Numbered from the stretch's first letter, positions 37,539 through 63,431 are shown. The stretch: DNA of 64,000 nt from Candidatus Omnitrophota bacterium (GCA_041662125.1 JBAZTA010000001.1:518379-582378), one strand, 5' to 3'. The notes: generated from the letters alone by a model not told the origin. Made by a program: numbers and translations.

Positions 37539-39227
37539 TTATAATCCTTCAACCTGCATATCGCGCGGATGCTCGACGATGTAATTCGACAGTATTTCTT
37601 TCTTGGCTTTCGGCTCTAACTCCAACTCCCAGAGCCAGACACCTTTTCTGTCCTGCCAGTTCTTTTCTTTCGGCTCCGCTGAAACCTGCCCGAGCTTAAC
37701 CTTGATCCGGTCATCTTCAGAAACAGGCATCGCCTCGAACAATTTAACTTTTATTTTTTTCGATTTATAATTTTCTACTGTCAGCTTATATTTAAATGTG
37801 GTTTTACGCGTCGGCGACAGGATCCCTCCGATCATGGTCTCATCGACTTTTTTCTCAATCTGCTCGCGTTTTACCTTCACATTCTCATCAACACCCAAAT
37901 AAAGGTCAAATTCTTCCTGTGGCCCGGTAGCGCCCAAATTGGAAGTACCGACAAAATCACCATCTAAAAAAATATTTACTCTGCCGGCAAGGAGCTGCAG
38001 ATCCTTCGCATTCGTGACCCGGCTTCCCAAATAAGCAGCAGGTATACTACGCGGATAGGTGGAATATTCAAAATCCGCTTTCAACACTTGTGAAGAAACC
38101 GCCAATTTATGGTCTGAACCGTCGGATTTAATACTGGCTTTCTGGGGCAATGTATAAACCACTGCCACGCCTTTTTCTTCTGCCACGGCGTAAGCAACTT
38201 CATTCTTCATTTTTTGTAATCCCCCGACCGCACCATCTTCCCCTAATTTTTCATCGCTTTCAAAAGCGCTCATTTGCATCGTAGGAGCCATCGCATCCAT
38301 CTTTCTGGCGCGTTGTTCAAAATGCAGCTGAAGCGGCCGCAATACCCAAGGGCTCACATACGGAAGATTTCCTCCTATAGACGGCTTTGCCGTTGACAAA
38401 ACGATATCAACATCCTGCCAATCTTCCCCGGTATTCTGCTTAATGATCCCGAACGACACTAACTCTACTTCTGAGTTCTGAAAGTTTGCCCGAGCATCGT
38501 AAATCGGCTGCCAGGAAGCGCCATTGACCAAATACGACAAGTTTAGAATAACAACCCCCTGTTTCAAAACCTGGACATCAACCACGATCGAACGCTTCAG
38601 TTTTTGCACCGGCCCTGCTATCTGCGCCAATTCTCTCTTTAAAGCATCGATCTTCAAAGAAACATCCCGCAGTTTGATCTCGCAATCCATGACCAAAGAA
38701 ATGTTTTCTTTTAACTTTATATCAAGGAACTTTAAGGTATCATCTAAATCTTTAACCGAAGGCATTTTAGTGATCAGATCTTTCGGCAATTGCTCCCGCG
38801 AGAAAAAACGCAACGAATCCAGAAAACTTTTTTCTTCCTGGAAGACATTTTTAAGGTCAGCTACCCCTGCACGTTCATCTTCTAACTTTTGGATTTCATC
38901 CTGCAGTTGTTTTATCCGCTCGGAAGGAGTTTCTTTAAGGAATTCTTTCTTAAGCTGAGCGCCTAATATCCTGACCGTAGCTTTTCCCTCTTCGGTGATC
39001 CTGAGAGAATTTTCATCGACGTTGGGAATGATATTAGGGAATACGACTTTGTATTCTCCGGGATTTAAGGAAAGCTGTGCCTGACGGGTCAACAAGGCCT
39101 GCCCGGGATAAATCATTACCCGGGTAATCCGGGAATCCGCTTCAATTTCAGCGGCAAAACAATAGCCTGTAAAGACAGACATGAGTAAAGCGAGTATCGC
39201 TACAGAAATACCCTTTTGCTTGCGCAT
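37539..39227 (-). CDS. Secreted DUF4140/DUF4139-like (MuiA-family) protein with a central coiled coil
   Basis: Signal peptide MRKQKGISVAILALLMSVFTGYCFA and a coiled-coil middle. The family assignment comes from recalled architecture and carries only moderate confidence. Confidence 0.55.
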   Translation of the reverse strand: MRKQKGISVAILALLMSVFTGYCFAAEIEADSRITRVMIYPGQALLTRQAQLSLNPGEYKVVFPNIIPNVDENSLRITEEGKATVRILGAQLKKEFLKETPSERIKQLQDEIQKLEDERAGVADLKNVFQEEKSFLDSLRFFSREQLPKDLITKMPSVKDLDDTLKFLDIKLKENISLVMDCEIKLRDVSLKIDALKRELAQIAGPVQKLKRSIVVDVQVLKQGVVILNLSYLVNGASWQPIYDARANFQNSEVELVSFGIIKQNTGEDWQDVDIVLSTAKPSIGGNLPYVSPWVLRPLQLHFEQRARKMDAMAPTMQMSAFESDEKLGEDGAVGGLQKMKNEVAYAVAEEKGVAVVYTLPQKASIKSDGSDHKLAVSSQVLKADFEYSTYPRSIPAAYLGSRVTNAKDLQLLAGRVNIFLDGDFVGTSNLGATGPQEEFDLYLGVDENVKVKREQIEKKVDETMIGGILSPTRKTTFKYKLTVENYKSKKIKVKLFEAMPVSEDDRIKVKLGQVSAEPKEKNWQDRKGVWLWELELEPKAKKEILSNYIVEHPRDMQVEGL

Positions 39228-39263: not shown

Positions 39264-40520
39264 CTACGTCCCCATCTCCCAGCTTGATAAATATTTCTTT
39301 TGCTCTTGAGTCAAAGTATCAATCCTGACTCCCATTGACTTTAATTTCAACCGGGCAATATTGGTATCGATATCTTGAGGGACCCCATAAACTTTATTCT
39401 CTAATTTCTTATAATTTTTGCTGATATATTCAGCGCTGAACGCCTGATTGGCAAAAGACATATCCATGACACTTGCAGGATGGCCCTCTGCTGCCGCAAG
39501 ATTAATTAACCGGCCTTCCCCCAAAAGATAAATCCTGCGCCCGTCTTTAAGCGTATATTCATCAACAAAATCGCGTATCATCCTTTTGTGCTTCGCGAGG
39601 CTTTCTAACCCGGGGATATCGATCTCAACATTAAAATGCCCGGAGTTAGAGACTATCGCCCCATCTTTCATGGTTTGGAAATGTTCTTTACGGATAACAT
39701 TAATATCGCCGGTGACCGTCACAAAAATATCTCCGATCTTAGCAGCATCTTTAATAGGCATGACCCCAAACCCATCCATGACAGCTTCAATAGCTTTTAA
39801 CGCCGAAACTTCCACCACAACAACATTGGCACCCATGCCTTTGGCGCGCATGGCAACACCTCTGCCGCACCAACCGTAACCGCTGACCACGACCGTACTG
39901 CCGGCTATTAATTTATTGGTCGCGCGGACTATGCCATCGATGGTCGACTGTCCCGTCCCGTAACGATTATCAAAAAAATGCTTAGTCTGGGCGTCATTAA
40001 CGGCGATGATAGGATAACGCAGCTTTCCTTCTTCTGCTAACGCCCTCAGGCGGATGACACCGGTTGTCGTTTCTTCGGTCCCGCCGATAATATTGCTATG
40101 CACCGCAGGATCACGCTTATGAATAGAACTGACAAGGTCAGCCCCGTCATCCATGGTCATCTCAGGTTTTATTCCTAAGGCCGCTTCCATATGTTTATAA
40201 TACGTCGAGGTATCTTCCCCTTTAATGGAAAACACAGCGATCTTAAGATCTTGCGCTAAAGAAGCAGCGACATCATCCTGTGTCGATAATGGATTAGACG
40301 CGCAGAGAGCAAGCTGGGCACCTCCGGCTTTTAAGACTTCCATTAAAACAGCAGTCTCGGTAGTCACATGTAAACAACAGGCGACTTTTAATCCGGCAAG
40401 CGGCTTTTCTTTCTTAAAACGCTCGGCAATAAGCTTTAAAACAGGCATATTGTTACGCGCCCATTCAATCCGTAACGCGCCTTTTTTCGCCAACTTCATA
40501 TCTTTAACATCATATTTCAT
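39264..40520 (-). CDS. ahcY: Adenosylhomocysteinase
   Basis: 418 aa with an NAD-binding [14 protein letters not shown] motif and full-length SAHH similarity. Confidence 0.93.
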
Positions 40521-40585: not shown

Positions 40586-41764
40586 TTATAAGCGCGCTGC
40601 CTGTTTCTTCAATACAGCTGATTTATCCGTTATTTCCCATTTAAATTCCGGCTCATTCCTTCCAAAGTGGCCGTAACAAGCTGTCTTGCGGTATATCGGA
40701 CGCAGCAGGTCTAATGTTTTAATGATCCCACCGGGAGTAAGGTCAAAATTCTCACGGATAAGCTTTACGAACTTCTCATCAGAAAGTTTTCCCGTGCCAA
40801 AAGTATTGACAAAAATTGACAAAGGATCTGCATAGCCGATAACGTAGGATAACTGCACCATGAATTTATCCGCCAGGCCTGCGTCAACGATATTTTTGGC
40901 AACATAACGGCACATATAGGCCGCGGAACGGTCAACTTTAGTCGGATCTTTTCCTGAAAAAGCCCCTCCGCCATGCGGAACAACACCGCCATAGGTATCA
41001 ACGATGATCTTTCGCCCCGTCATCCCGGTATCTGACTGAGGGCCGCCGATAACAAATTTCCCCGTCTGATTCACATAATACTTCGTATGCTTATCAATTA
41101 ATGCGGTCAAAACCGGCTTGGCGATCACCTCGATCATTTCCTGCCGCGCTTTATCAGTAATATGCTGGCCTGTTTTATCTAAAATATCTTCGGTGTGCTG
41201 GCAGGCAAGAACGACCGAATCAACGCGCAGCGCCTTATCATTTTCATATTCGACGGTAACCTGCGATTTGCAATCCGGGCCTAAATATTTCAAAGTCCCG
41301 TTCCTGCGCACATCAGCCATGCGTTTCACCAATCTATGCGATAGCATTATAGGAAGAGGCATAAGCTCTTCAGTTTCACGGCACGCATAACCGAACATTA
41401 TACCCTGGTCACCGGCTCCTCCGGTATTAACCCCTTGCGCGATATCAGGAGACTGGCTATTGATCGTATTAACTATAGCGCAGGTTTCATAATCAAATCC
41501 ATACTTGGGATCAGTGTAACCGATTTCCTGGATTATCCTGCGGGCGAGCTTTTGTATATCCACATACGCGGTCGTGGTAATTTCTCCTCCAACGATCAAA
41601 AGCCCCATGGTAACATACGTTTCACAGGCAACCCTGCTTTTTTCTTTATCTTTATCAGACGTTAACACCTGGTCCAAAACAGCATCGGATATCTGGTCGC
41701 AAACCTTATCCGGATGGCCTTCGCCGACCGATTCTGAAGTAAAATAATGTTTTTTCATCGTCAT
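40586..41764 (-). CDS. metK: S-adenosylmethionine synthetase
   Basis: [51 protein letters not shown] upstream of the first ATG. Confidence 0.95.
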
Positions 41765-50516: not shown

Positions 50517-51827
50517 CTACTTACACGTTGTCAAATCTTTAATAACCGTAACTACCCTTGCAACTTTACCGCCTTCTAAAATAGGGATCTTTCTTGTTTC
50601 CGTAGAAAACTTCTTATTTTTAATCTTAATCTTTTCTTTCGCAACCATGATCTTGCCGGTTTTAAACACTTTTTGATAGTCTTCACGCACGCTTTCAGAT
50701 AAGAACGGGTAAACGTCAAATAAGTGCTTGCCAATAACATGAGATTTTATCTTAAAATTCTTATTCCACTGCGTAAAAACCTTATTAACTAAAATAATAC
50801 GCAGTTGGCGGTCTACAACATAGACAGCCTCCCCCATAGAATCCAGCGTCATACGATATTGCAACTCCGATGATTTTCTTTTTTCCTCAGTAAGCTTATA
50901 TGCTGTAATATCATTCACATGGCCGTGATAATGAGTAATCCTTCCGTCACTGTCCCGGGGAACAACAATAAAAACATGCACCCATTTATACAGCCCGTCA
51001 GCGCAACGGATACGGTATTCCTCATCAAAACAGCCTGATCCCTCTTTACTATGCCCTTGGACATCTTTTTCCAATTTTTTGCGGTCATTCGGATGGATAA
51101 GGCTAGCGTAAAGTATCTTACCTTTCATAAAATCAGCCGGTTCATAGCCGAATTGCATTAATACATTTTCCGATACATATTCCACAGGCCAGCCTTCTTG
51201 AGCTTTCCACTTGAATACGACGGTCGGCCCGCTGATAAACAACTTCCTTTCAGCGTCTAACTCTTCCTGAACCCTGATACGCTTGTCAATTTCAAGATGC
51301 AGGTCTTCATTAGCTTTGCTGAGTTCTGCGGTGCGTACTTTTACCCGAATTCCCAATTCAGCCCGGGAGTTCCGTAAAGCTTCTTCCATTTTCTTGCGCT
51401 CGGTAATATCAAAAATAACTCCCACTAATCCTCCGGTAAGGCCTTCTTCATTCAGGAATGTCTCTTTATAAAAGACCACATTATGCCTGATTCCATTTTT
51501 AGAAGCAACATAGCTCTCATATTCCTGAATACCGCCTTCTTTAAATAATTCCTGGTCTTTCTTATGATAAATCTCAGCTAAATCCTTTGGGAAAAGATCG
51601 AAAACCGACTTACCCATAAGCTCATCTTTTGACAATCCGACATAACGCTCAAACTCAAGATTACACCCTAAATACCTGCCATTTGTATCTTTATAAAAAA
51701 TAGGAATGGGGATCGCATCAATAATAACCTGCAGGAAACGGAGTTGTTCCTGTGAATCAATCCGGGATTGTTCTGCATTACGCGGATCTGGCTCCGGTCC
51801 CTGGCCTGATTGTTGGTTATTCTGCAT
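50517..51827 (-). CDS. Triple-PAS-domain sensor protein without a recognisable output domain
   Basis: Three repeated PAS-like blocks (IPIPIFYKDTNGRYLGCNLEFERYVG...; VVFKWKAQEGWPVEYVSENV...; EAVYVVDRQLRIILVNKVF...) in 436 aa. Confidence 0.75.
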   Translation of the reverse strand: MQNNQQSGQGPEPDPRNAEQSRIDSQEQLRFLQVIIDAIPIPIFYKDTNGRYLGCNLEFERYVGLSKDELMGKSVFDLFPKDLAEIYHKKDQELFKEGGIQEYESYVASKNGIRHNVVFYKETFLNEEGLTGGLVGVIFDITERKKMEEALRNSRAELGIRVKVRTAELSKANEDLHLEIDKRIRVQEELDAERKLFISGPTVVFKWKAQEGWPVEYVSENVLMQFGYEPADFMKGKILYASLIHPNDRKKLEKDVQGHSKEGSGCFDEEYRIRCADGLYKWVHVFIVVPRDSDGRITHYHGHVNDITAYKLTEEKRKSSELQYRMTLDSMGEAVYVVDRQLRIILVNKVFTQWNKNFKIKSHVIGKHLFDVYPFLSESVREDYQKVFKTGKIMVAKEKIKIKNKKFSTETRKIPILEGGKVARVVTVIKDLTTCK

Positions 51828-51931
51828 ATTTACCCTTAGCTCTTCAGCCGCCTTCTTTACCTATATATGTAGCTGAGAGCCTATTATATAGTATCTTAAA
51901 TTATTATAACATTCACCTTAAGCCTGTCAAC

Positions 51932-53035
51932 CTAGATTTTAGCTCTTTTACCGGGAATCAGTGACGGATAATCTAACTTGAGCTCAAAAGGATATTCATG
52001 ATAATAATGATCCAATTTAAAGAAAAGGCTGTCTTGAGCCATTTTTTTAATGATTTTACTTAATGGTTTATCTTGCGCAGACAGAAAACCGGTATTATTC
52101 CTGACTTTTAAATATTGCGTATCAATCCCCGGGCAGATCATGGCAAGGCTGCATTTCAGGCATTCTTTATGATTATGAGCATTCTGGTTATAATTCACCG
52201 TAGGCCCTGGTTTAAAAGATGTATTTTTTCCCAAGAGCTGATTATTATTAAAAAACATCTTGTTTTTTCTTAGTTTCAACGGCAGCTCAAGGCAGAGATG
52301 TTCAAAACCGCTATACAAACAAAGCGGGAAACGGCTTATGACAACACCAATGCCGTTATTCAACGCGTATTTGAGAGCTCTTTGAAGGTAACCAGCAAAC
52401 TCATTGTAATCCGGCATAAGCCCCGGATTTTCAAAGACTCGCCCTTCAAGATTAAGCGTCTTTATATGCACCAGAAAATCCCTGCTTCCCAAGAGCTTTT
52501 TCAACAGCTTAAAAACTGCAAGTATTTTAGGAAAATTAACCGAATTTGGAATAAAATTAAAGAAAATAACCATCGTACTGCTATAATCCCTGATATTTTT
52601 TATCCCTTGGATCAATTCTTCAAATGCATCCACGCCCATAAGGGCGCGAAACATCGATCTATCATGAGCATGCACGGAAATTTCAATAGAATCAAGGTAT
52701 TTTAATATCCGGCGCGCGAATACCCGGTCAGCGAACTTAATGCCATTGGTGACTAAATACGTCTTTATACCCTGACGATGAATAAACCTCAAGATCTCCT
52801 CAAGGTCTTCCCGCAGCGTCGTCTCCCCCCCCATGAAATTGATCGCTTCAATACCCATCGATTTAAGTTTCAGCACCGTTTGCTTGATAACACTCAAATC
52901 GACATTAACCGGATGCGTATGCCGGCCTTCTGAACAAAACAGGCAAGACGCATTACAAAATGAAGTCACATTCAGGATCGCGGTCTCCCCCTTGATTTTC
53001 CTAACGCCGGTCTTGAGATCAGGTAATATGCTCAT
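51932..53035 (-). CDS. Radical SAM protein with a C-terminal SPASM/twitch-like Cys motif
   Basis: CNASCLFC (CxxxCxxC), GGETTL, and C-terminal CLKCSLAMICPG. Confidence 0.8.
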   Translation of the reverse strand: MSILPDLKTGVRKIKGETAILNVTSFCNASCLFCSEGRHTHPVNVDLSVIKQTVLKLKSMGIEAINFMGGETTLREDLEEILRFIHRQGIKTYLVTNGIKFADRVFARRILKYLDSIEISVHAHDRSMFRALMGVDAFEELIQGIKNIRDYSSTMVIFFNFIPNSVNFPKILAVFKLLKKLLGSRDFLVHIKTLNLEGRVFENPGLMPDYNEFAGYLQRALKYALNNGIGVVISRFPLCLYSGFEHLCLELPLKLRKNKMFFNNNQLLGKNTSFKPGPTVNYNQNAHNHKECLKCSLAMICPGIDTQYLKVRNNTGFLSAQDKPLSKIIKKMAQDSLFFKLDHYYHEYPFELKLDYPSLIPGKRAKI

Positions 53036-53064
53036 AATATTTTAAGGCTTCGGCCTTGGTAAAA

Positions 53065-54717
53065 TTATTTATCGGGCAGCACCCGTATATACGGTTTGTT
53101 AAGTTTAACAGAAATATCCTTGCCGATAAACTTTCCTGCCGCGTGATCACGGGTCTTAATAATAAGGGACGCGGAAGAATCACGGAATAATATAAATTTG
53201 CTTTGCATGGTATGGATTGCCTGGCCGCAATCGATAAAACAGGTTGCCGGATATTGCCTTCTCAGGCTTCCTGACGCACCATGCCCATGCACCCAGATCT
53301 CAGGCATTAACTGCCGAGGTAAAAGCTGAGTAAGCGGCAAACCGGCTTTGCCGACTTTTATCAAATCAATACGGTAATGAGAGAAGACAATCCTGATAAA
53401 ATCAACTTTCTTGTTCAAAATACTCATCAGCTTCTTAAACGTCTCCTCTGTTATCGTATCCGCAGCAACCAATTCTCTATGAGAGGGAAAAGCGTCTATC
53501 GGCAAAATAATGGAACAAATGTTGCCGTCCTCAAAAGACGAGAACAGATTATTTGAAAGATATTTACGAAAATACGCAATTTGAGGTTTCTTGTTTTTAT
53601 AGACATACTCATGATTTCCCAAAACATGTGTGATCTTTCTTCTCTCTGCACAATCGGAAAAGGCTTTTTTATACGCTGCATACGCTTTTGGCCCCTGATC
53701 GCCTTCCACCGTATCACCCACAAAGAAGCCTTTTGACCAGAAAATCGAATTACTGTCCCGCAATATCGCCCTTACCTTACCTGAATTGGTGAGCCCGGCA
53801 TGTAAATCAGCAAGGCACCAGAAAACCAGATATTTACGAGCAGCATTTATAGTATGCAACTCTCCATCACAGCCTAAGGCATCCTTGCAACCAGCACACT
53901 CATTCTTCTTACTCACCATTTTTTTAATAAGTGGAGCCAATCGTTTCTGTTTCCCGTTTTCAAAGACAAGCCTAATGTTCCCTAAATTTGCGTTTCCTGT
54001 GATTTTAAATTTATGTAAGCCTCTCACCAGGCACGGGGGGATAAAACGAAGCGCCCCTGAAGTAAAACGGGTTAAAGAAAGGTTCCTCCCTAATCTGCGG
54101 ATATCGTTATAGTCAAGCATCCTGTCCTTATCAATAACGATTTCGTTTGTAAAATCAAGATTTGAAGGCACTACCGGGCTTACCATAAAAAAATGAAGCC
54201 CTCTGGCAGCGAAGAAATCGAGCGTTTTATGGACACCGGTAATGTTATAGCGGTGGACCAGAAGGCTCCCCCCCAGCTCAACTTTTTTTCCGCGAAGGTT
54301 CTTAATACCCTGCAGGAGTTCTGCGAAACTTCCCTTTACCCCGGTAATTTTTTCATAACTCTCTTGTTTATGCGAATGAAGAGAAAAAATTATCTTGGTC
54401 AAGCCCGCCTCAATGATCCTCTCGCAGAAATCACGATAATAAAACATCCTCCCGTTGGTAAAAAGCGTTATGTTCGTAAAACCATGCCTTTGGGCCTCGC
54501 GGACATACTCGAATATATGGGGGCTAATGGTAGGTTCTGCCCCGCTCAAATCAAGGCTCTTATATCCACGCCCGGCAGCAAGCCTGATTTCTGCCAATAC
54601 AAACTTTTTGTTACTATAGCCCTGAGGAGCAACCTCACAGAAAAAACACGCATTGTTACATGCATGGGTGAACTGAATGATGATTATTTTCTTTCGGTTT
54701 TTTTCCTGAATCAACAT
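53065..54717 (-). CDS. Radical SAM - metallophosphoesterase (calcineurin-like) fusion protein
   Basis: N-terminal CNNACFFC plus SGAEPT. The C-terminal half carries all MPE motifs: ADLHAG, GDTVEGDQG, GNHEY and HGHG. The start is probably the MLIQEK Met. Confidence 0.8.
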   Translation of the reverse strand: MLIQEKNRKKIIIIQFTHACNNACFFCEVAPQGYSNKKFVLAEIRLAAGRGYKSLDLSGAEPTISPHIFEYVREAQRHGFTNITLFTNGRMFYYRDFCERIIEAGLTKIIFSLHSHKQESYEKITGVKGSFAELLQGIKNLRGKKVELGGSLLVHRYNITGVHKTLDFFAARGLHFFMVSPVVPSNLDFTNEIVIDKDRMLDYNDIRRLGRNLSLTRFTSGALRFIPPCLVRGLHKFKITGNANLGNIRLVFENGKQKRLAPLIKKMVSKKNECAGCKDALGCDGELHTINAARKYLVFWCLADLHAGLTNSGKVRAILRDSNSIFWSKGFFVGDTVEGDQGPKAYAAYKKAFSDCAERRKITHVLGNHEYVYKNKKPQIAYFRKYLSNNLFSSFEDGNICSIILPIDAFPSHRELVAADTITEETFKKLMSILNKKVDFIRIVFSHYRIDLIKVGKAGLPLTQLLPRQLMPEIWVHGHGASGSLRRQYPATCFIDCGQAIHTMQSKFILFRDSSASLIIKTRDHAAGKFIGKDISVKLNKPYIRVLPDK

Positions 54718-54730
54718 GTGTAACCCTGCG

Positions 54731-55858
54731 CTATTGTGCTCTCTCCGCATAATGATAAAAACACCCCTTACAACCGGGAGAAAGGCTCTTGGAAAACAAG
54801 GCTCTTACCTTTTGCGCCTGCCTGCCATTCCAGATTTCTGAAAATGAATGCTCCTTGATATTTCCGATAAAAACATCGTGACAGACATAAATATCGCCAT
54901 TAGGCATAACGTTGACCTGATGCCAGGGAGCTGTACAATACCGGCAATAATGCAAGGCTCCCCGGTTATCTTTATAATACGGGATTATCTCATCCGGATA
55001 CAGGTCAGGGCTAAAAGATACCGCGCGGAGCTTTTTAACTTTCCTGATCTCGGCAATAAATCGGGAGAAATCAATATACCCCGGAGAATAGGTATATCCC
55101 GGCCAAAGCTCAAGCGCCGTAATATTAAGTTTATCACGCAAGAACTTTTCTTGCATTTTCAATGTCTGCCGGTTTATGAACATCAAATGCTGAAAATGGT
55201 AATTGTCAACCGCAATGCCGGCATTCTGCATGAATGCAATGAACTCTCCCATATGCGCATAACTCAGGTCTGAAATAGTATATAACATATTTAAACGCGG
55301 GCGGTTTGCATGCTTTTTCTTATACAGCGTAAGGGCGGCTAAGCCCTTTACAATCGTCTTAAAATGAGCGGGAGAATCTTCCCTGATCAGATGAAGGATC
55401 GACGGCGGCCCCCCCAGGGAGAGGCTAACCTGGTCTAATACCCGAACAGCCTTATCCATGTTTTTTAAAAGATAGACTCCGTTTGTGGTAACAGAAACCC
55501 GCACCCCTTGTTTTTTGAAACACTGAGCCAGATTGTACCAGTGCGCAGACAACAATGGTTCCCCTCCGGAGAAAGTCACTGTTTTAGGATGAAACGCCAT
55601 TACTTCTTGTGCGAATCTTTCCAAATCTTCCTGGCTTAAAGAAGCTTTATATTTGTTAAGAAACCCTTTTTTTCTGCACGGCCCTTTGATCCCCCACCAT
55701 GAGCAAACTTTACAGCGCAGGTTACAGCGAAGCGAGAACATGATGTAAACTTCCCCTACAGAGGTAGCCTTCAACAAGTCACTACTGGCTCTTCCCTTAA
55801 GCGATAAAGCCAAGGCTTGTGTATCTACTGTTAAATCAAGCATCGCGCCTCCTTGCAT
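54731..55858 (-). CDS. Radical SAM / SPASM-domain protein
   Basis: CNLRCKVC, SGGEPLL, and C-terminal CRYCTAPW...CHDV...GCKGC SPASM-like cysteines. Confidence 0.82.
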   Translation of the reverse strand: MQGGAMLDLTVDTQALALSLKGRASSDLLKATSVGEVYIMFSLRCNLRCKVCSWWGIKGPCRKKGFLNKYKASLSQEDLERFAQEVMAFHPKTVTFSGGEPLLSAHWYNLAQCFKKQGVRVSVTTNGVYLLKNMDKAVRVLDQVSLSLGGPPSILHLIREDSPAHFKTIVKGLAALTLYKKKHANRPRLNMLYTISDLSYAHMGEFIAFMQNAGIAVDNYHFQHLMFINRQTLKMQEKFLRDKLNITALELWPGYTYSPGYIDFSRFIAEIRKVKKLRAVSFSPDLYPDEIIPYYKDNRGALHYCRYCTAPWHQVNVMPNGDIYVCHDVFIGNIKEHSFSEIWNGRQAQKVRALFSKSLSPGCKGCFYHYAERAQ

Positions 55859-57822
55859 CCCGGCTGCTTAATCGGAAAATACATTTCTGAGTGAAAAAAT
55901 TCCCGGAACAATTCCTCTCGCATAAGGCTATTCACGACAATTTCTTTTTTCCGCGAGCCGCGCTTATATACATTGATGACACGCAATAATGCGGTGTCAA
56001 GATCACACAGAAAAATCTTATTGTGACGCAACCAACCAACATCGCCGATAAGACTGGCTTCTTTGAGCCTTCGGAAACGTTTAGAAAAAACAAGGTTGCC
56101 GCAGAGATACACCTTTCCTTGCCCATCAACGGTAATATCAGTTGAGGCAGCTCCAAAAACGCCGGGGATTCCACAGTTCAATATCGAAACGCCCTTACGA
56201 AAATAAAGGTCTCTGCTTATTTTAAAAAGAGATACCAGGGCGCAGGCTACAGAAGAAGCATCATACAAGATACCGGGATCATAAGAAAATCTTATTTTCC
56301 TGACCCCCTGCTTGATCAAAAAAGAAATATCTTCCTCAAAACCCTCAAGATGCAAAAAAGGCACGTCCTGTATAACCCCAAAATCACTGCCGTTTTTCTT
56401 CAAAAGTTTTATTAATCCCGATATCTGCCGCTTAAAGGCGATATTCTTTACTGATGCGTGGATACCCCCACCTATTTTCAAAAGACATAAAACACGGTGC
56501 CGCAACAGGAAATTAATTTTATCTTCGTCTAAAAACAACCCCCCAGTAACCAGCGTACAAGAAACCTGCTTACGGGAAGACTTCTTTTTTTGCTGAACAT
56601 AACTAAGAGCTGCCTTGATCATTTCAAAATGCGCCAGCGGCTCTGCTCCGGAAAACTCCAGTTCAAAGCTCTCTTGCGAAGAAGTAAAAAGCATATCAAT
56701 AGACTTCTTCAAAACATCTTCACGCATACCCGGGCCGATCATCAGAGAAACTTTACCGAAAGAGCGATACCAGCCGGCATGGATACTCTGAGCGCGAGGC
56801 TGTTTTTCGAAAAGGGAATATTCTTGGCGCAAATGATTGAATTTATATAAAAACTCTGCGGCAATACCCATATACAGAATATGCATAAATTTCTGATGCA
56901 AACTCCGGGCGTATCTACGGATTATCGCTGCCTGCTTACCTTTAGTCATTTTTAAAGCTGTCAAATCCTTACAGTCATCGAGCTTGCCAAAATAAAAAAT
57001 ACGGTTTAATTCCGGGTATGCCCTCTCCAATACCAGCGCACACCCGATATATATCGATCCTGAGGCAGTTATGCTGATCTGAGGGCAATAAAAAACCGGT
57101 TCGCAATCTACGTCAAAATTTATGATCCGCGCGGTATGTCCATGCACTGATTTTAACAAAAACCCGAGCTCTGTAATATATCCGAGAAAATCCTGTCGCG
57201 AATATTTCTGCCCCAACGCATACGCTATCCAGATACGCCGTATCCCTTTTTTGATGAGAAAATCAATATTTTTACGCATAAGCGGGATATCTTCGCTCAA
57301 AACCACCATACTGACAAAATACCGGGCTTTATGCTTATTCAACAGGCCGATATTACGCAGTACCGTATTGAAATACTCTTTATTGCCTCCTATCATCGGC
57401 CTGTTCTTTAACTGCGTCAGCCGCGCGCCGTCGATACTGACCATGATCTCGACTTTTTCCCGCGTCAAAAAACCGATCTTCTCTTCATCCAAGAGCAGGC
57501 CATTAGTAGTGAGTAAATATGTAATTCTTTTACCGGTAGCCCTTTTTCTTTGGCCCGCATAATACAGTGCTTTCTGGATCAGGTCGAACCGCATAAGAGG
57601 CTCGCCGCCAAAGAACTGCAGTTCAACTTTTTTCTCAGGAGAAGTAAACAACAGATCAATAGACTTCTTCAAAACATCTTCCGGCATATCCGGCTGAGTG
57701 CGGTTAAGAAAACAATACCGGCAGGACAGCGGACAGCGGGTAGTAAGCAATAAAGCAACATTACGGATGCTTGACGGCTCTTTAAAGCGCGTGAAATTCA
57801 CGGGTTCCATATTTACGGGCAT
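55831..57822 (-). CDS. Internally duplicated radical SAM (anSME/SPASM-twitch-like) protein. The first half has CPLSCRYC; the second half has a degenerate cluster motif.
   Basis: Halves align (PEDVLKKSIDLLFTSPEKKVELQFFGGEPL versus REDVLKKSIDMLFTSSQESFELEFSGAEPL). A 27-nt identical DNA segment, atcaatagacttcttcaaaacatcttc, occurs at both ~56690 and ~57655. The start is uncertain because the ORF-track start overlaps the upstream gene by 188 nt. Confidence 0.78.
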   Translation of the reverse strand: MPVNMEPVNFTRFKEPSSIRNVALLLTTRCPLSCRYCFLNRTQPDMPEDVLKKSIDLLFTSPEKKVELQFFGGEPLMRFDLIQKALYYAGQRKRATGKRITYLLTTNGLLLDEEKIGFLTREKVEIMVSIDGARLTQLKNRPMIGGNKEYFNTVLRNIGLLNKHKARYFVSMVVLSEDIPLMRKNIDFLIKKGIRRIWIAYALGQKYSRQDFLGYITELGFLLKSVHGHTARIINFDVDCEPVFYCPQISITASGSIYIGCALVLERAYPELNRIFYFGKLDDCKDLTALKMTKGKQAAIIRRYARSLHQKFMHILYMGIAAEFLYKFNHLRQEYSLFEKQPRAQSIHAGWYRSFGKVSLMIGPGMREDVLKKSIDMLFTSSQESFELEFSGAEPLAHFEMIKAALSYVQQKKKSSRKQVSCTLVTGGLFLDEDKINFLLRHRVLCLLKIGGGIHASVKNIAFKRQISGLIKLLKKNGSDFGVIQDVPFLHLEGFEEDISFLIKQGVRKIRFSYDPGILYDASSVACALVSLFKISRDLYFRKGVSILNCGIPGVFGAASTDITVDGQGKVYLCGNLVFSKRFRRLKEASLIGDVGWLRHNKIFLCDLDTALLRVINVYKRGSRKKEIVVNSLMREELFREFFHSEMYFPIKQPGCKEARCLI

Positions 57823-60013
57823 ACGCGGACCAGACTCCTTCGCACCAGCCATTTTCTTTGCATGATGCGCAAAATTTAAACTTGCGTTTCTTTGACAAAC
57901 GTTGTTTAGAACACTCACGCAAGGCACTCCCAAGCGTAATGACTTCGTCAAACGGACGATATGGCTCAAAAGCGCGCGCGCGTAATTGAGCTAATGAGCA
58001 TAAAGGAAACCCTTCAAAATACAATTTCTGGATGAATTCCGGCAGCTCAACGCATATCCGCTGGAGCTGACGCATAACTTCCGATATCGCAGGAAGAGCG
58101 TTTTTTGGAACCTGAATATGGCCTAATGAATTGCTTACGAAAACCAGATGTAATTCATCAACACCCAGCTTGAGCAAAACCGAACAACATTCAAACAACG
58201 AGTCAAGATTAGCGTTAGTGATAACGATATCCGCCTGGATAGAAAGGCAACGCGCGTTTTCCCTGATATTCCTGATCCCGGTAATTGCCTGGCGGAAAGA
58301 ACCGGGGACTCTGCTTATCTGATCATGGACAGGCCCCAGCCCAAAAAAAGGGATGATAACTTTTTCTAAAGAAGTAAAACCGTTCAATACTTTAACCAGT
58401 CCCGGATACGATAACATACGCGCATTGGTGTATAAGAAAAGGTTATGCATTTCCAATTCGTCGCAATAGCGCAATATATCCCTCATATCTTTTCTTAATA
58501 ACGGCTCTGCGCCTGCCAAAACAACATACTCCCCCCTGCTCTTAACAAGCTCTAACTCAGATTTTATCTGCTTGAGGCTTTTTTTCACCCGGCGGCTTTC
58601 TTTAACCAACGAGCAAAACGCGCAATTATTATTACAGGTATTTGAAATTTGGATGATACTCATCCGGGGCTTTATCATGTTAGATAGTTCTTTAAGCTTT
58701 TTTTCGCTATGCTCAAGGGTAAAAGCAGGAGGACAATGGTTGGAACCTAGATAATACTTTTTCGGGAGCAAACCTCTTTCTTCAAAGATATCATGGATCC
58801 GCGTCATCGGATAGACCTTGACAATATTCACTAAAAGGTTGTCCGGATTACAATCACGCACATAATAGGCGGTTTCCCTTATCGTCTCCTCTGTTTCACC
58901 CAAATTCCCGACCATAAGCATAAGCACGGTACGTATCCCCGCTCGCGCGGTAAGCTTTAAAGCCTTTTTCGACTTAATTAAATCGAGGTTCTTGCCAATT
59001 GAACGTTGAATCTCTCCCGATGCGCTCTCTAAACCATACGATATCTCAAAACAGCCGGCCTGCGCCATAAAAGCAAGTAAGGGCGCGTCAACCGAATCAG
59101 AACGTGTCATACACGTCCAGCTTATGGTAAGCCCTGCTTGCATGATCCCTTTACATATTGCGATAACTCTGCGCCTGTCCCGGGTAAAGAAATTATCCCC
59201 AAAGACAAAATTCTTAATCTTGAACTTTTTATGGAAATAAGCGACCATCGCGACAAAATACTCAGGGCTATGAAACCGCATTTTGTCCTGGATCACCTTA
59301 CTCATCGGGCAGAAATTACAGCTATACACACAGCCGCGGGAAGAAAGCAATAAAAGGGCGTTGCGGAAGCTCGTGCAACGTTTCCCCAGGATAAAGTTCC
59401 TTTTGGCTGAAATAGTATCCAAACAGTTGATCTTATCCTGAAATCCGCTAAAAAGATGAAATGCCGGGTATGGCAGGGAATCCAGGTCGGTAATACCACG
59501 CCGATCTTCGGTGCGTAACACTTTTCTGCCCTGCCGATACGCTATCCCATCAATAGCGCTGATATCCCCTCCTTTTGTTTTAAGGCAGCAGACTAATTCA
59601 AGAAAGGACTGCTCGCCTTCTCCGATAACGATATAATCAACCGGAAAATGCTTCAGGAGAAACTCATATTTATCTGTCGCAAACGGCCCACCGAGAATAA
59701 TGATTGCCAGGGGCGCGGCATCTTTTATCGTTTTGATCAACTCATAGACCGGTCCGCGCGTGCAGCTTTGAATGGTGATACCGATATAACGGGGCCTGGT
59801 TTTCAGTATCCGCCTGAAGCTTTTAAGCATCACCGGCACCGGCTCAAGGTCAAAATCATAGACACTGACAGGGATATGATTTTTAAGCAAAGAGGCGGCA
59901 ATCAAACTGATCCCATACGCAGGGCCGAAGTAATTTGGCGCCGGGTCCGGGTTCGTCGGGTTTACGAGGACTATTTCATGCTTAGAAAATTTATTTCGCA
60001 GGCTCATGATCAT
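57782..60013 (-). CDS. B12-binding-domain radical SAM fused to a second radical SAM domain (743 aa)
   Basis: N-terminal B12-binding-like Rossmann region, first cluster motif CVYSCNFC and a second CNNNCAFC with AGAEPLL in the C-terminal half. Confidence 0.82.
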   Translation of the reverse strand: MIMSLRNKFSKHEIVLVNPTNPDPAPNYFGPAYGISLIAASLLKNHIPVSVYDFDLEPVPVMLKSFRRILKTRPRYIGITIQSCTRGPVYELIKTIKDAAPLAIIILGGPFATDKYEFLLKHFPVDYIVIGEGEQSFLELVCCLKTKGGDISAIDGIAYRQGRKVLRTEDRRGITDLDSLPYPAFHLFSGFQDKINCLDTISAKRNFILGKRCTSFRNALLLLSSRGCVYSCNFCPMSKVIQDKMRFHSPEYFVAMVAYFHKKFKIKNFVFGDNFFTRDRRRVIAICKGIMQAGLTISWTCMTRSDSVDAPLLAFMAQAGCFEISYGLESASGEIQRSIGKNLDLIKSKKALKLTARAGIRTVLMLMVGNLGETEETIRETAYYVRDCNPDNLLVNIVKVYPMTRIHDIFEERGLLPKKYYLGSNHCPPAFTLEHSEKKLKELSNMIKPRMSIIQISNTCNNNCAFCSLVKESRRVKKSLKQIKSELELVKSRGEYVVLAGAEPLLRKDMRDILRYCDELEMHNLFLYTNARMLSYPGLVKVLNGFTSLEKVIIPFFGLGPVHDQISRVPGSFRQAITGIRNIRENARCLSIQADIVITNANLDSLFECCSVLLKLGVDELHLVFVSNSLGHIQVPKNALPAISEVMRQLQRICVELPEFIQKLYFEGFPLCSLAQLRARAFEPYRPFDEVITLGSALRECSKQRLSKKRKFKFCASCKENGWCEGVWSAYARKYGTREFHAL

Positions 60014-60035
60014 CTCTTATGTAATCAGCACGCTC

Positions 60036-63000
60036 TCATCCCTCAAAAAAACATGCTTTACAGGTAACATTCAAGTGCCGGCAGCCGCGGCAAAACTTTC
60101 TGCCGGGAACATTCTTACCTCTTTTTTGACAAGTGATCTTTAAACAATAGTCGCAATCACGCGGCACATAATAAGTATACCAAGACTCGCCGAAATCCAA
60201 CAAACATTTCGGTATAGGCTTATAGACTAAAAACACACCATGCCGGCGCCGCAAAGACAAATAGCGCCTTATTTGTTTAAGCGCGGCAAGGTCAATATCC
60301 TCTTGCCTTATCTTAAAGTCAATCACTTCAAAACCACATGTTTCTTTTTTCCGGGCCTTGATCGCATGCATATCCGCGCTTATATCTTTAAAACTGACCG
60401 GCCTGACATACGGCGCTAACGCCGATTTAAATTCTTTCAGCAAAAACTTAGATTTCGACTCAAAAAAAGAACTGGTATAGTTATACGTAAAAACCTTTTC
60501 AAGAAAATCAGTAGTCAACTCGGGGCTTGCGCACGGCCATACAGAAGGATGAAGTTCGCTCAAACTACGAGAGGAAAACTCAGACTCATATTTCCTAAAT
60601 ACCCCGGTATTCGGAATAGGAGTAAAGGCATTAAACTTAACCGCTACCGCGCATTTCCATAACTCGATAATGGTATTAATTATTTCCTGCCGGCTCTGAT
60701 CCGGCAAGCCGATAAGCACAAATGCCGAAAGCTGATTGTCGCGCAAATACATGCGCGGCCTCCTTTTTTCAGCTTTACGCAGAGACATCCCCCGCAGCGC
60801 AGGATTATACCAGCCAACACTCTTTAAATTTGAAACCGCCGTATAGAACCCCGTATTCCCTCGGGGCCGCAGGTATACTTTCGGGAACGAACGGGCAGAA
60901 ACCTCAAAAGCAAGACAAACTTGTTTTACATGCGCACGCAACAACTTCCTTGCCACACCTTTAGAAATAAAATCTGGCTGTAGCCCCTCAGGAAATTCAA
61001 TTTCCATTTTGAACTTGAGATCAATAAGCCTTTGCAGAAAATCATCAAAATAGGTATTCTTGGCCCCGAAAACATTGGATTCCCAGAAAGTAAATGTGCG
61101 GACACCGTACTTCTCATACTTCTGCCTGATCTCATCCATAACAAGGTCAAGAGAACGAAAATATGTTTTCTTGCCTTCAATAAAGGGAACCGCGCAGTAG
61201 GTGCATGAATTAACACAGCCGCGGCTGAATTTGATCACTGCCATTTTCTTAGAAAAATTGGCAAGCAAATTAAAACTAGCCTGATAGTTATCAGCGTGAT
61301 AAAAGACACCCACAAACACTTCAACCCCCAATTTCCTGACAAGAGGAGCGCATAAAGACGCTAAAATCCCTCCCACGCAGATAACCGCTCCGGGAAACTT
61401 TTTCTGAGCTGCCGTAACAATCTGGCGAACAAAATCATATTCATAAGTGAATTGCGAAGTAATAAAGATCTCATCAGGCTCACCTGCCGCTTCAAGACGT
61501 TTTAAGAATTCTACCAAAGGGGTACCCCGGCGATACAATTTCTTTTTTCTCTTCTCTTGCGCAAAATTACCGCATTGCACCGATTTAAAAAAGTAGGATT
61601 CCTTTAAAGTATCCTCCCAACAGTCTGCCAAACAATCAATAAGGCTAATCCGATGCCCGCGATCTTTTAGAAAAGCCCCGATTTTAAGTAAACCAGCGGG
61701 TTCTTCAGAATAGAGATCAGCCATCCCTTCCCCTTGCATTGTAGGAGGCCTGATTAAAAGATATTTCTTGTTTTTGGAAGATACGATCCTTTTCGTGATT
61801 TCGTAATTATCCCGCTTCTCATTGAATTTATCCGCATAGGCAATGCTTAAGCTGATAAATTCATCATAAAGCATTCCGCCTTCAGAAGAATACGGCAAGG
61901 AAAACGACCGGGTATCATACGCGTTTGTCTCCGGCTGCCTCAGCCTGAAGCCTTTTTGATGAGAATAAATAGAGGTATTCCTGCCAAAAGCGAAATACTG
62001 AGGAATAATACCGGATATTTTCTCCCTCCGGAACAATACATATTCCCATGTCTCAATATATTCCCTTTTTTCCTGGAATGGATAACTCATAATAAATAAA
62101 TCAATCTTCATGCCTGCCTCAAGGGCGGAATCAAGGAAACGGTCTAATGCAAGAAGGTCAATGCCTTTACGCAGCGTATTCAGGAATTCCTGGTTTGAAG
62201 TTTCAAGACCAACAGCCATAAAAGTAGCGCCCGAGCGTTTCAACAATAAGAACTCCGCAGGTGTTATCGGGTAATCCGCGCGGATCAAACAATCCCACTG
62301 AACCTTGATTTTACGTTTTATGATCTGCTCAGCGACTTTCAATAAAAGCGGTACAGGCGTTGAGGAATCAGCAAACGTAAAGGCCTTCAGGGAATACCTT
62401 TTTTGCAGGCTTTCGATTTCATTGATAATCCTCTCAACACTCTTCTGACGCATGATCGTCTTATCATTGATATGGTGGCAAAACCTGCACTTATGCCAAT
62501 AGCAGCCTTTTGTGGTCGATACCGGTAACGCACGAGAAACATCGTGTTTGGAGATACAATGGTCAAAATCACCCAGCGGCAAATCATTGAGAGGAACTAT
62601 CTCTGCATCTCCGGTATCAATAAGTGATCGGCCTGAAAGGAAAACTAACCCCTTAATCGATCTTAATTCTTGAGGCGGCGCGCCTTTTTTTAACGCATTG
62701 ATCAAACTCAATAAAGGGACTTCTCCTTCCCCGTTTACGACGAAATCGACAAAATCAAAGATCTGCTTGAAATTTGACAGCTCAGCCCTCGAACAAATAC
62801 ACCATGCCCCGCCTATAACAATACGGGTTGCGGGAAAACGCTCCTTTATTTTTCTGGAAAAATACAGCGCGCTGCCTAACTGTAACGGCGTTAACACGGA
62901 AAATCCCACAACCGCTGCCTTTTGCGCCAAAGCAAAAACATGGTGTTGGAGAAAAAAATCAAACAAGGGGTCATCCTGCTTAAGAAGAACCGCCATTTTC

Positions 63001-63431
63001 CTTATATCGTATTCATTATTGGTAATACTGACTAATTCACCCAGCAGCCGCATGCTTTCTTCTTGGATAAAATTATAGGTATTAAGAAAACACCGTTTAA
63101 AATCAAGCTCAATAAAAGTTTCCTTATCGATAGAACGAAACAGTGGATGGCCGCCTCGGGAAGCAATACGGGAACTAACCCGGTCTGAAAAAAGCTTTTT
63201 GTAACGAGGGAGGAATTCATTCATAAAAACAATGTTGAGATCGAACGCTTCGGCTGCCACGCCATTCTTCTTCAGAAAACCGCTCAACTGCGGAAGGCCA
63301 AGTTCGGGAATAGTAAATTGAAATCCGGGAGGAGGAAACAACAAAAGACAATCAAGCGTATGCGCTACATCCATATTTTCCCCTTCATTATTCCTACTTT
63401 TCCCTACCTGCATAAATACACAAACGGGCAA
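60036..63431 (-). CDS. Tandem B12-binding radical SAM didomain protein (1131 aa) with a Cys-rich C-terminal tail
   Basis: Two B12-binding-like modules, each followed by a radical SAM core: CYWHKCRFC (Cx4Cx2C spacing) and CVNSCTYC. The C-terminus carries CDYC...C..RG....C.GC....C.AC. Confidence 0.8.
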   Translation of the reverse strand: MPVCVFMQVGKSRNNEGENMDVAHTLDCLLLFPPPGFQFTIPELGLPQLSGFLKKNGVAAEAFDLNIVFMNEFLPRYKKLFSDRVSSRIASRGGHPLFRSIDKETFIELDFKRCFLNTYNFIQEESMRLLGELVSITNNEYDIRKMAVLLKQDDPLFDFFLQHHVFALAQKAAVVGFSVLTPLQLGSALYFSRKIKERFPATRIVIGGAWCICSRAELSNFKQIFDFVDFVVNGEGEVPLLSLINALKKGAPPQELRSIKGLVFLSGRSLIDTGDAEIVPLNDLPLGDFDHCISKHDVSRALPVSTTKGCYWHKCRFCHHINDKTIMRQKSVERIINEIESLQKRYSLKAFTFADSSTPVPLLLKVAEQIIKRKIKVQWDCLIRADYPITPAEFLLLKRSGATFMAVGLETSNQEFLNTLRKGIDLLALDRFLDSALEAGMKIDLFIMSYPFQEKREYIETWEYVLFRREKISGIIPQYFAFGRNTSIYSHQKGFRLRQPETNAYDTRSFSLPYSSEGGMLYDEFISLSIAYADKFNEKRDNYEITKRIVSSKNKKYLLIRPPTMQGEGMADLYSEEPAGLLKIGAFLKDRGHRISLIDCLADCWEDTLKESYFFKSVQCGNFAQEKRKKKLYRRGTPLVEFLKRLEAAGEPDEIFITSQFTYEYDFVRQIVTAAQKKFPGAVICVGGILASLCAPLVRKLGVEVFVGVFYHADNYQASFNLLANFSKKMAVIKFSRGCVNSCTYCAVPFIEGKKTYFRSLDLVMDEIRQKYEKYGVRTFTFWESNVFGAKNTYFDDFLQRLIDLKFKMEIEFPEGLQPDFISKGVARKLLRAHVKQVCLAFEVSARSFPKVYLRPRGNTGFYTAVSNLKSVGWYNPALRGMSLRKAEKRRPRMYLRDNQLSAFVLIGLPDQSRQEIINTIIELWKCAVAVKFNAFTPIPNTGVFRKYESEFSSRSLSELHPSVWPCASPELTTDFLEKVFTYNYTSSFFESKSKFLLKEFKSALAPYVRPVSFKDISADMHAIKARKKETCGFEVIDFKIRQEDIDLAALKQIRRYLSLRRRHGVFLVYKPIPKCLLDFGESWYTYYVPRDCDYCLKITCQKRGKNVPGRKFCRGCRHLNVTCKACFFEG

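Follow-up and report, generated by a model that had tools for sequence, protein, structure and literature searches.

A radical SAM enzyme fused to a metallophosphoesterase domain, and its constant radical SAM partner, in Omnitrophota

Here we describe a gene that joins a radical S-adenosylmethionine (SAM) core, a four-cysteine linker and a C-terminal metallophosphoesterase (MPE) domain in one polypeptide, and that lies on the minus strand of a 64,000-nucleotide stretch of DNA from a Candidatus Omnitrophota bacterium (GCA_041662125.1 JBAZTA010000001.1:518379-582378; hereafter the window, with positions counted from its first letter). A sequence-only reading of the window had noticed the two domains and regarded their union as uncommon and perhaps invented for one pathway. 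We find that this fusion is a new domain architecture and a new family made of known superfamilies, and that it behaves, together with the 367-residue radical SAM enzyme encoded next to it (w367), as an obligate pair that forms the conserved core of large radical SAM gene arrays. The fusion is very probably real and its phosphoesterase site functional. With moderate confidence, we further propose that the protein would couple radical chemistry and phosphoester hydrolysis on a shared intermediate, a combination in one polypeptide of which we found no description in the literature.

One uninterrupted gene with three parts

The open reading frame (ORF) list of the window holds a single, uninterrupted frame of 561 residues for this gene (Table 1), on the minus strand, a strand that the sequence-only reading had left unstated. 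Its start codon is probably M12 (window 54717), since both the gene call of a database entry and the N-termini of orthologues agree on it: the 100%-identical database copy, on a 646-kb contig, is 550 residues long and carries the name 'MAG: radical SAM protein [Candidatus Omnitrophota bacterium]'. M12 lies 13 nt past the stop codon of the upstream gene and is preceded by the sequence AGGG.

As the sequence-only reading had named a frameshift near residue 300 as the observation that would split the protein into two genes, we checked that region and found neither a frameshift nor a stop codon. Orthologues of 513-569 residues share the unbroken architecture on independent contigs and are full length in independent assemblies, and a two-gene or frameshift artefact was rejected on the strength of the continuous frame and these full-length counterparts. 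The union of the two domains is borne out by a PF04055 match to the N-terminal half (67.5 bits, gathering cutoff 29.5), by PF00149 matches in 12 of 12 aligned relatives and by the fold model. The full-length AlphaFold model, built from nine sequences, has two domains, with a predicted local distance difference test (pLDDT) score of 85.6 and a predicted template modelling (pTM) score of 0.78. The fusion is thus a member of both the radical SAM and the metallophosphoesterase superfamilies, and no curated family covers the whole protein.

A metallophosphoesterase domain with a reduced ligand set

Across nine fusion members, which share 24-78% identity, the residues D315, H317, G345, D346, E349, G350, G378, N379, H380, H458, G489, H490, R534 and H536 are invariant. 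We take D315, H317, D346, N379, H458 and H490 to be six of the seven canonical metal ligands and H380 to be the catalytic His. The earlier statement that every canonical MPE motif is present holds for DLH (315-317), GNHE (378-381) and the lone H458, but was overstated, as two motifs are non-canonical. What had been read as GD..DxG is GDTVEG (345-350), with an invariant Glu at the position of the second Asp, and GH.H is absent: the pattern had relied on H488 (context V-H488-G489-H490-G-A), which is Ser, Tyr or Phe in relatives, and only G489-H490 is kept. No fusion member has a His two positions after the first one of motif V, and the standalone relatives of the domain read GHTH or GHAH. PPP-type protein phosphatases likewise lack the second His of GHxH, the seventh ligand. 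Because the six ligands and His380 are invariant and the seventh ligand is missing from PPP-type phosphatases too, the site is plausibly active.

The PF00149 scan that the sequence-only reading had recommended does return the whole window protein, albeit marginally, at 21.5 bits (E 3.4e-4), a score equal to the gathering cutoff of 21.5. Scored alone, the domain reaches 23.6 bits, and the domains of all 12 aligned relatives match the same profile individually (best E 1.2e-14). An AlphaFold model built on the domain alignment is confident (pLDDT 91.9, pTM 0.92), and its Foldseek matches, at probability 1.00, comprise purple acid phosphatase 1ute (the best, E 2e-8), GpdQ, Rv0805, Lmo2642, plant purple acid phosphatases, Mre11/SbcD, Vps29 and PP5. 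A chance occurrence of phosphoesterase motifs was rejected on these three grounds: the relatives' PF00149 matches, the confident model and the Foldseek matches. The domain superposes on solved structures with template modelling (TM) scores of 0.54-0.63 and 10-15% identity, and therefore belongs to no solved subfamily. By sequence profile, the domain finds PDB sequences only marginally (2nxf, E 0.004; purple acid phosphatases, 0.04; then Mre11 and Dbr1) in a list that otherwise holds superfamily members bar a few chance-level matches (Lrp, capsid proteins), and the whole-protein profile has no significant phosphoesterase match among PDB sequences.

With the binuclear MPEs (1ute, GpdQ 3d03, Rv0805 2hy1, Lmo2642 2xmo and the dimetal phosphatase 2nxf) the domain shares the beta-sandwich (alpha/beta) fold, motifs I-IV and the first His of motif V. 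It differs from them in its GDxxE, in the missing second His of GHxH, in an additional invariant RxH motif near the C-terminus and in its attachment to a radical SAM core.

Radical SAM core and four-cysteine linker

The CNNACFFC motif named in the sequence-only reading is indeed present, at residues 31-38, and CxxxCxxC is kept in seven of the nine aligned family members, being deleted in the other two (P0012 and P0013). The N-terminal half of the full-length model has the partial TIM-barrel (triosephosphate isomerase barrel) fold of solved radical SAM enzymes (Foldseek probability 1.00 for BlsE, SkfB, DesII, viperin and MoaA), and its matches further include GDGT-MAS, SuiB, anSME, PqqE and AbmM. 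By sequence profile the nearest solved chains are BlsE (8.9e-12) and AbmM (4.6e-10), then MoaA and SkfB, with viperin-like chains weaker; DesII, at E 0.024 in this list, is yet among the top Foldseek matches. BlsE (7vob), AbmM (8wm2), MoaA (1tv7), DesII and viperin are thus among the closest solved structures over residues 1 to ~290, but at identities of 13-20% and with equivalog models scoring far below their cutoffs. The matched radical SAM chains are 253-479 residues long, and their alignments never extend into the C-terminal half of the fusion model.

Against curated NCBIfam models the best scores are those of HxsC (TIGR03977), 74.6 bits against a cutoff of 267.9, and HxsC4 (NF038332), 72.1 against 500. 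The two MoaA models score 68.3 against 325.25 (TIGR02668) and 48.1 against 284.05 (TIGR02666), the viperin model (NF038283) 32.7 against 180, and the BlsE model (TIGR04466) 43.3 against 400, although BlsE is the closest solved structure; the PADLOC pVip profile reaches 44.7 bits and matches the core only. With scores this far below the curated cutoffs, the fusion is not a member of HxsC, HxsC4, MoaA, viperin or BlsE.

Between the two domains lies a module of ~110 residues that had gone unmentioned in the sequence-only anatomy of the protein. Its four cysteines are invariant in nine of nine members, including the two without CxxxCxxC, and its C-x2-C-x5-C part recurs in two neighbours, the partner w367 and, within its C-terminal module, the 743-residue w743. 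The fusion has no match to SPASM (PF13186), which the neighbour w375 matches at 1.1e-13, and has C-x44-C-x2-C-x5-C in place of the seven-Cys SPASM motif. We consider the linker a putative SPASM/twitch-like auxiliary Fe-S cluster site. In MoaA, too, an auxiliary cluster is located towards the C-terminus, and a second enzyme then acts on the phosphate chain of the MoaA product.

Lineages that lost the SAM-cluster motif

In two members of the family the CxxxCxxC motif has been removed by deletion: P0012, found on four independent contigs (L003 10001-11623, also L004-L006), and P0013, found on one (L017 433-2058). Identity to the radical SAM core is 26% in P0012 and 20% in P0013, and identity to the MPE domain 31% and 28%; both keep the linker cysteines and every phosphoesterase residue. 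This pattern suggests that selection maintains the phosphoesterase site and the auxiliary site, the former because both proteins lost CxxxCxxC and kept all phosphoesterase residues. Radical chemistry can apparently be supplied in trans, most plausibly by the partner enzyme. Pseudo-SAM proteins such as TIGR04347 resemble P0012 and P0013 in having lost the SAM cluster while keeping the rest of the fold and auxiliary cysteines, but differ from the window protein, whose CxxxCxxC is intact and which scores 37.3 bits against the TIGR04347 cutoff of 525.

A rare architecture named only in Omnitrophota

An exhaustive search with residues 296-561 against 1.84 billion representative proteins (E up to 0.001) returned 13 relatives of the MPE domain, with the fusion itself in about ten 50%-identity clusters. 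Nine of the 13 are 513-551 residues long, with the match ending at their own C-terminus, and represent the same fusion, from which it follows that the domain is used almost only in this context. P0016, the tenth, is the fusion again in truncated form. Two others (P0015 and P0018) are weaker matches, standalone proteins that are secreted or membrane-anchored; their motif I differs, their motif V is a canonical GHxH, and their genomic contexts are unrelated to radical SAM genes. In P0017 (893 residues) a similar domain ends a far longer chain at its C-terminus.

Other searches reached the same scale: a word-indexed search of 5.8 billion clusters found only P0001-P0004 and P0020, a pattern-based scan with six sequences over 185,579 GTDB species genomes found two true carriers, both Candidatus Omnitrophota metagenome-assembled genomes, and a metagenome scan found only a contig already known. 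A third locus of the genome scan, L012, was rejected as a false positive, a generic phosphoesterase-exonuclease fusion from a high-GC deltaproteobacterium. Every taxonomically named carrier is an omnitrophote. The earlier impression that such fusions are uncommon is therefore correct, at about ten clusters and two species in these two collections. Literature searches for a radical SAM-phosphoesterase fusion returned nothing relevant, and papers on Omnitrophota do not discuss the arrays described below.

A constant partner within variable arrays

The fusion is the fifth of six co-directional genes with tight or overlapping junctions, an arrangement that recurs in two related Omnitrophota contigs. 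A gene for an AddB-like PD-(D/E)XK nuclease flanks the array on one side, and a PAS protein followed by rpsB-tsf-pyrH-frr on the other; the array sits in the core chromosome.

The gene directly after the fusion, w367, is the one feature that does not change. Its orthologue takes that place in eight of eight distinct loci of this layout that reach past the fusion gene (the window, L010, L001, L002, L003, L007, L016 and L017) and, as far as the contig reaches, on the short contigs L014 and L015. The orthologues are 44-84% identical to w367, above the identity of the fusion itself at the same loci. L018 and L019 differ: there a w367-like module (28% identity) is part of a B12-radical SAM protein encoded immediately upstream of the fusion. 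In a word-index search, the w367 family was found only on contigs that also carry the fusion. Given this constant adjacency while array composition varies, the two genes behave as an obligate pair that makes up the conserved core of the arrays.

In all loci with long flanks, the fusion lies in a radical SAM gene array. The minimum counts are 10 such genes in L002 and in L016, 13 in L003, 14 in L007-L009 and 8 in L018/L019. The notion of a pathway-specific invention gains from this setting, the fusion standing always beside one partner radical SAM enzyme and, wherever flanks are long, within radical SAM arrays; the partner gene itself had been missing from the sequence-only account.

Table 1 Features of the fusion gene, its partner and the surrounding array in the window
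Feature	Position	Strand	Evidence or remark
Fusion gene	53065..54750	-	Longest ORF 561 aa; probable start M12 at 54717, giving 550 aa
Radical SAM core, residues 25-179	54214..54678	-	PF04055 E 2e-18, 67.5 bits; Foldseek
CNNACFFC (C31, C35, C38), CxxxCxxC motif for the SAM-binding [4Fe-4S] cluster	54637..54660	-	Translation check
Linker module, C240 + C285-x2-C288-x5-C294	53869..54033	-	Alignment; invariant in nine members
MPE domain, ~residues 305-555	53086..53838	-	PF00149, AlphaFold model, Foldseek
Motif I, D315-L-H317	53800..53808	-	D and H invariant in all nine fusion members
Motif II, G345-D-T-V-E349-G350	53701..53718	-	G, D, E, G invariant in fusions; GDxxE versus canonical GDxxD
Motif III, G378-N-H-E381	53608..53619	-	GNH invariant in 12/12 relatives; fourth position E or D
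Motif IV, H458	53377..53379	-	Invariant in 12/12 relatives
Motif V, reduced to G489-H490	53281..53286	-	GH invariant; no second His
R534-D-H536, family-specific, near the C-terminus	53143..53151	-	R and H invariant in 12/12 relatives
Partner w367, 367-aa radical SAM enzyme, CNASCLFC + C-x2-C-x5-C	51932..53035	-	Adjacency and identity across loci
Co-directional six-gene radical SAM array (1131, 743, 712, 375, 561, 367 aa); ~nine radical SAM-fold modules	51932..63431	-	Pfam, NCBIfam
1131-aa double B12-binding radical SAM protein	60036..63431	-	Pfam/NCBIfam
743-aa B12-radical SAM + HxsC-like radical SAM module	57782..60013	-	Pfam/NCBIfam
712-aa tandem PapB/HxsB-like protein	55831..57969	-	Pfam/NCBIfam
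375-aa radical SAM/SPASM protein	54731..55858	-	Pfam/NCBIfam

His-Xaa-Ser components in some of the arrays

The His-Xaa-Ser (HXS) system is an experimentally characterised antiphage system in which HxsB, HxsC and HxsD mature the effector HxsA by N-terminal processing and a +8 Da modification; in its canonical form it consists of four genes, 99.7% of its occurrences fall in Pseudomonadota, and a phosphoesterase is not part of it (PMC13128918). Its relation to the fusion is close in some respects: HxsC and HxsC4 are the best curated similarity of the N-terminal half and are themselves non-SPASM radical SAM enzymes standing beside a second radical SAM enzyme, and genuine HxsA4, HxsB and HxsD occur in some fusion-carrying arrays. 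HxsA4 in L019 scores 55.7 against a cutoff of 55, HxsB in L007 493.6 against 370, and HxsD is found in L007 and L003. PapB- and HxsB-like modules are present in all arrays, and peptides with His-Xaa-Ser repeats are encoded beside two of the array types (L007-L009 and L019), at L007 5276-5563 (+) and L019 16122-16388 (-); their leaders are alike (EEGK[IV]SKK), both end in HGQW, and the L019 peptide is the one that passes the HxsA4 model. Each of these peptide genes adjoins one for a Cys-rich secreted protein without a family match (L007 4501-5274, L019 15078-16112).

The system is unlike the fusion in that no MPE domain has been reported in it, and the 64-kb window has no HxsA, HxsB or HxsD. 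In the sequence available, HxsA, HxsD and any ORF with His-Xaa-Ser repeats are absent from the window, its two syntenic relatives, L001, L002 and L016. Nor does the window have a candidate precursor peptide, with no ORF rich in such repeats and no intergenic room inside the operon. Translated searches (tblastn) into the window with the HxsA, HxsD, A24-like, 5-formyltetrahydrofolate cyclo-ligase and amidinotransferase-like proteins of other loci found only radical SAM cores.

Other genes recur in or accompany the related arrays. L003 (8862-10004) and L016 (13758-14933) encode homologous polytopic membrane proteins (26% identity, E 2.5e-21) with an (A/S)AGDAKLF motif; the former lies directly upstream of the fusion, the latter matches Peptidase_A24, and tblastn detects no homologue of them in the window. 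In three otherwise different arrays a HemN/HemZ-like radical SAM enzyme is encoded near the pair (L001 3875-5269, L003 14767-15846, L019 7677-9179), with no obvious equivalent in the window array. Directly upstream of the fusion in L002 (7204-7773) is a gene resembling 5-formyltetrahydrofolate cyclo-ligase (61 bits, below the cutoff of 84.9), and the operon of L018 (4418-5611; also L019) starts with a gene for a 397-residue protein with C-terminal GGSLHC that looks amidinotransferase-like by eye and has no family match.

Proposed function and alternatives

We propose that the fusion is one bifunctional protein with three predicted metal centres. The [4Fe-4S] cluster at CxxxCxxC would cleave SAM to a 5'-deoxyadenosyl radical, the four linker cysteines probably hold an auxiliary Fe-S cluster, and the MPE domain would carry a binuclear metal site with a reduced ligand set, as in PPP-type phosphatases. 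Working as a unit with the adjacent w367, it would take part in the radical tailoring of a phosphorylated or nucleotide-linked intermediate, and the fused MPE domain would hydrolyse the phosphate or nucleotide group on the same substrate molecule. MoaA followed by MoaC, and PhnJ followed by PhnP, are analogues in logic.

The sequence-only reading had already argued for a phosphoester-type substrate, and hydrolysis of such a bond is the most reasonable chemistry given the conserved metal ligands; the particular candidates it offered (a nucleotide, a phospholipid headgroup or a phosphonate) go beyond what can be shown, and it left out a peptide, though several arrays carry HxsA4, HxsB and HxsD. 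A small-molecule substrate is suggested because the window, its syntenic relatives, L001, L002 and L016 show neither HxsA nor HxsD in the sequence available, and no space for a precursor gene, some loci have small-molecule-type enzymes by the pair, and a phosphoesterase needs a phosphoester. The nearest solved relatives of the radical SAM half, which include BlsE, AbmM, DesII, MoaA and viperin, favour a nucleotide-type substrate: PDB molecule names, PMC12691670 and general background assign them nucleoside, nucleotide or nucleotide-sugar substrates. As a wider and tentative extension, the pair may be the catalytic core of an undescribed Omnitrophota pathway in which 9 to 16 or more radical SAM modules act on one heavily modified product, either an HxsA4-related peptide or a new cofactor or metabolite, by way of a phosphorylated or nucleotide-tagged intermediate whose tag the fused MPE domain would remove as part of the radical step.

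Several observations weigh against coupled chemistry on a phosphorylated intermediate. No gene for a kinase, nucleotidyltransferase or substrate accompanies the pair in a conserved manner. Among NCBIfam models, the radical SAM half most resembles the protein-modifying HxsC and HxsC4, and the arrays of three lineages (L003, L007 and L019) hold bona fide HXS parts above curated cutoffs, a system in whose peptide-maturation chemistry we know of no phosphate. The whole-protein Pfam match, at the gathering cutoff, covers residues 310-420 and no more than the first half of the model (positions 3-104 of 191), and metal binding may be altered, motif V having no second His and motif II a Glu for Asp. 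Finally, domain identities, residue conservation, rarity and the invariant partnership are observed, but we infer the occupancy of metal and cluster sites, the catalytic activity and the coupling of the two reactions from sequence and predicted structure, on which all functional statements made here rest.

Some of these same points would fit a different role, which we consider possible though rather unlikely, in which the pair are tailoring enzymes of an expanded HXS-type maturation, with a ribosomal peptide as substrate and an MPE domain that either acts on a transiently phosphorylated or nucleotidylated residue or binds a His-rich peptide through its metal site. The HxsC and HxsC4 similarity, the HxsA4 (L019), HxsB (L007) and HxsD (L007, L003) matches, the repeat peptides ending in HGQW, the ubiquitous PapB-/HxsB-like modules and the homologous membrane proteins of L003 and L016, one of them with a Peptidase_A24 match, all speak for it, as does the experimental demonstration that HXS matures a protein with radical SAM enzymes (PMC13128918). 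The fusion, however, scores far below the HxsC and HxsC4 cutoffs, and the window, its two syntenic relatives, L001, L002 and L016 lack HxsA, HxsD and repeat ORFs in the sequence available. Canonical HXS, moreover, is a four-gene system found almost wholly in Pseudomonadota, with no phosphoesterase, and there is no kinase present to make a phospho-peptide.

Unlikely, in our judgement, is a catalytically silent MPE domain, a scaffold in the manner of Vps29 or GAP50, that serves only to bind other proteins or the substrate in a complex of several radical SAM enzymes. Vps29 and GAP50, non-enzymatic members of the MPE fold, are among the structural matches, and the reduced motif V, the Glu of motif II and the marginal Pfam score agree with such a role. 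Six of the seven metal ligands and the His of GNH are nevertheless invariant down to 24% overall identity, even where the radical SAM motif has decayed; the top structural matches are active enzymes, and scaffold members such as Vps29 lack these residues.

Less probable still, and in our view improbable outright, is that the product of the pair is a modified nucleotide with the role of an antiviral or toxic effector, formed through a viperin-like step on a nucleoside triphosphate followed by dephosphorylation, the array being a defence island. PADLOC pVip profiles match the cores weakly (fusion 44.7 bits, partner 69.6 bits), viperin structures are among the Foldseek matches, and HXS, parts of which occur in some arrays, is antiphage; but the pVip similarity is that of a generic radical SAM core common to all six array proteins, the NCBIfam viperin score of 32.7 is far from its cutoff of 180, and the setting is a stretch of core chromosome that three genomes share in synteny and that is neither a mobile nor a defence island.

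That the fusion is an artefact, in which an error of sequencing or assembly merged two genes or phosphoesterase motifs arose by chance, is almost certainly wrong: its sole argument is the marginal Pfam score of the window protein, and against it stand the recurrence of the unbroken architecture in independent NCBI, JGI, ENA and Logan assemblies at 24%-100% identity, the modelled MPE fold and the PF00149 matches of 12 of 12 relatives.

Other observations around the window array

Two neighbours of the pair have fewer canonical SAM-cluster motifs than radical SAM stretches. The 1131-residue protein has two B12-binding and two radical SAM stretches with one canonical CxxxCxxC only (residue 739). 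In the 712-residue protein the motif is present in the first copy only (residue 79), and the second copy (~413-668), which can be aligned with the same homologues, resembles a pseudo-radical SAM module in its sequence.

Immediately past the partner gene's stop codon, in front of the gene for the PAS-domain protein (50517..51827), lies a perfect 12/12 match to the sigma-70-type promoter consensus (window 51903-51930, minus strand: TTGACA, 16 nt, TATAAT, with an extended -10 TG), which suggests that the radical SAM operon ends at 51932 and that the PAS gene is transcribed on its own. A 194-residue polytopic membrane protein with an HExxH-like HELGH and no Pfam or NCBIfam match is encoded at window 49333-49917 (-); the syntenic Omnitrophota contigs conserve, between the PAS gene and rpsB, one of equal length. 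Some 10 kb downstream from the array, both on the minus strand, are metK, for SAM synthetase (40586..41764), and ahcY, for S-adenosylhomocysteine hydrolase (39264..40520). A DUF4140/DUF4139 protein (37539..39227) has a counterpart in the unrelated locus L001 (11203-12867), a synteny that may be coincidental.

Implications

The function of radical SAM enzymes is seldom readable from sequence, and fused domains are among the few clues to their substrates. Here, the phosphoesterase is covalently joined and its active site intact and strongly conserved, which suggests a phosphate-bearing intermediate in a pathway whose other enzymes are nearly all of the radical SAM type. A natural experiment is likewise available in this family, some lineages having inactivated the radical SAM site and kept the phosphoesterase.

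Arrays of up to 14 or more consecutive radical SAM genes are unusual and apparently uncharacterised. As the fusion and its partner are their only constant, the pair is a natural entry point for biochemistry. The presence of HxsA4, HxsB and HxsD in some arrays ties them to an antiphage protein-maturation system of recent characterisation, and HXS-type chemistry may be far more elaborate outside Proteobacteria.

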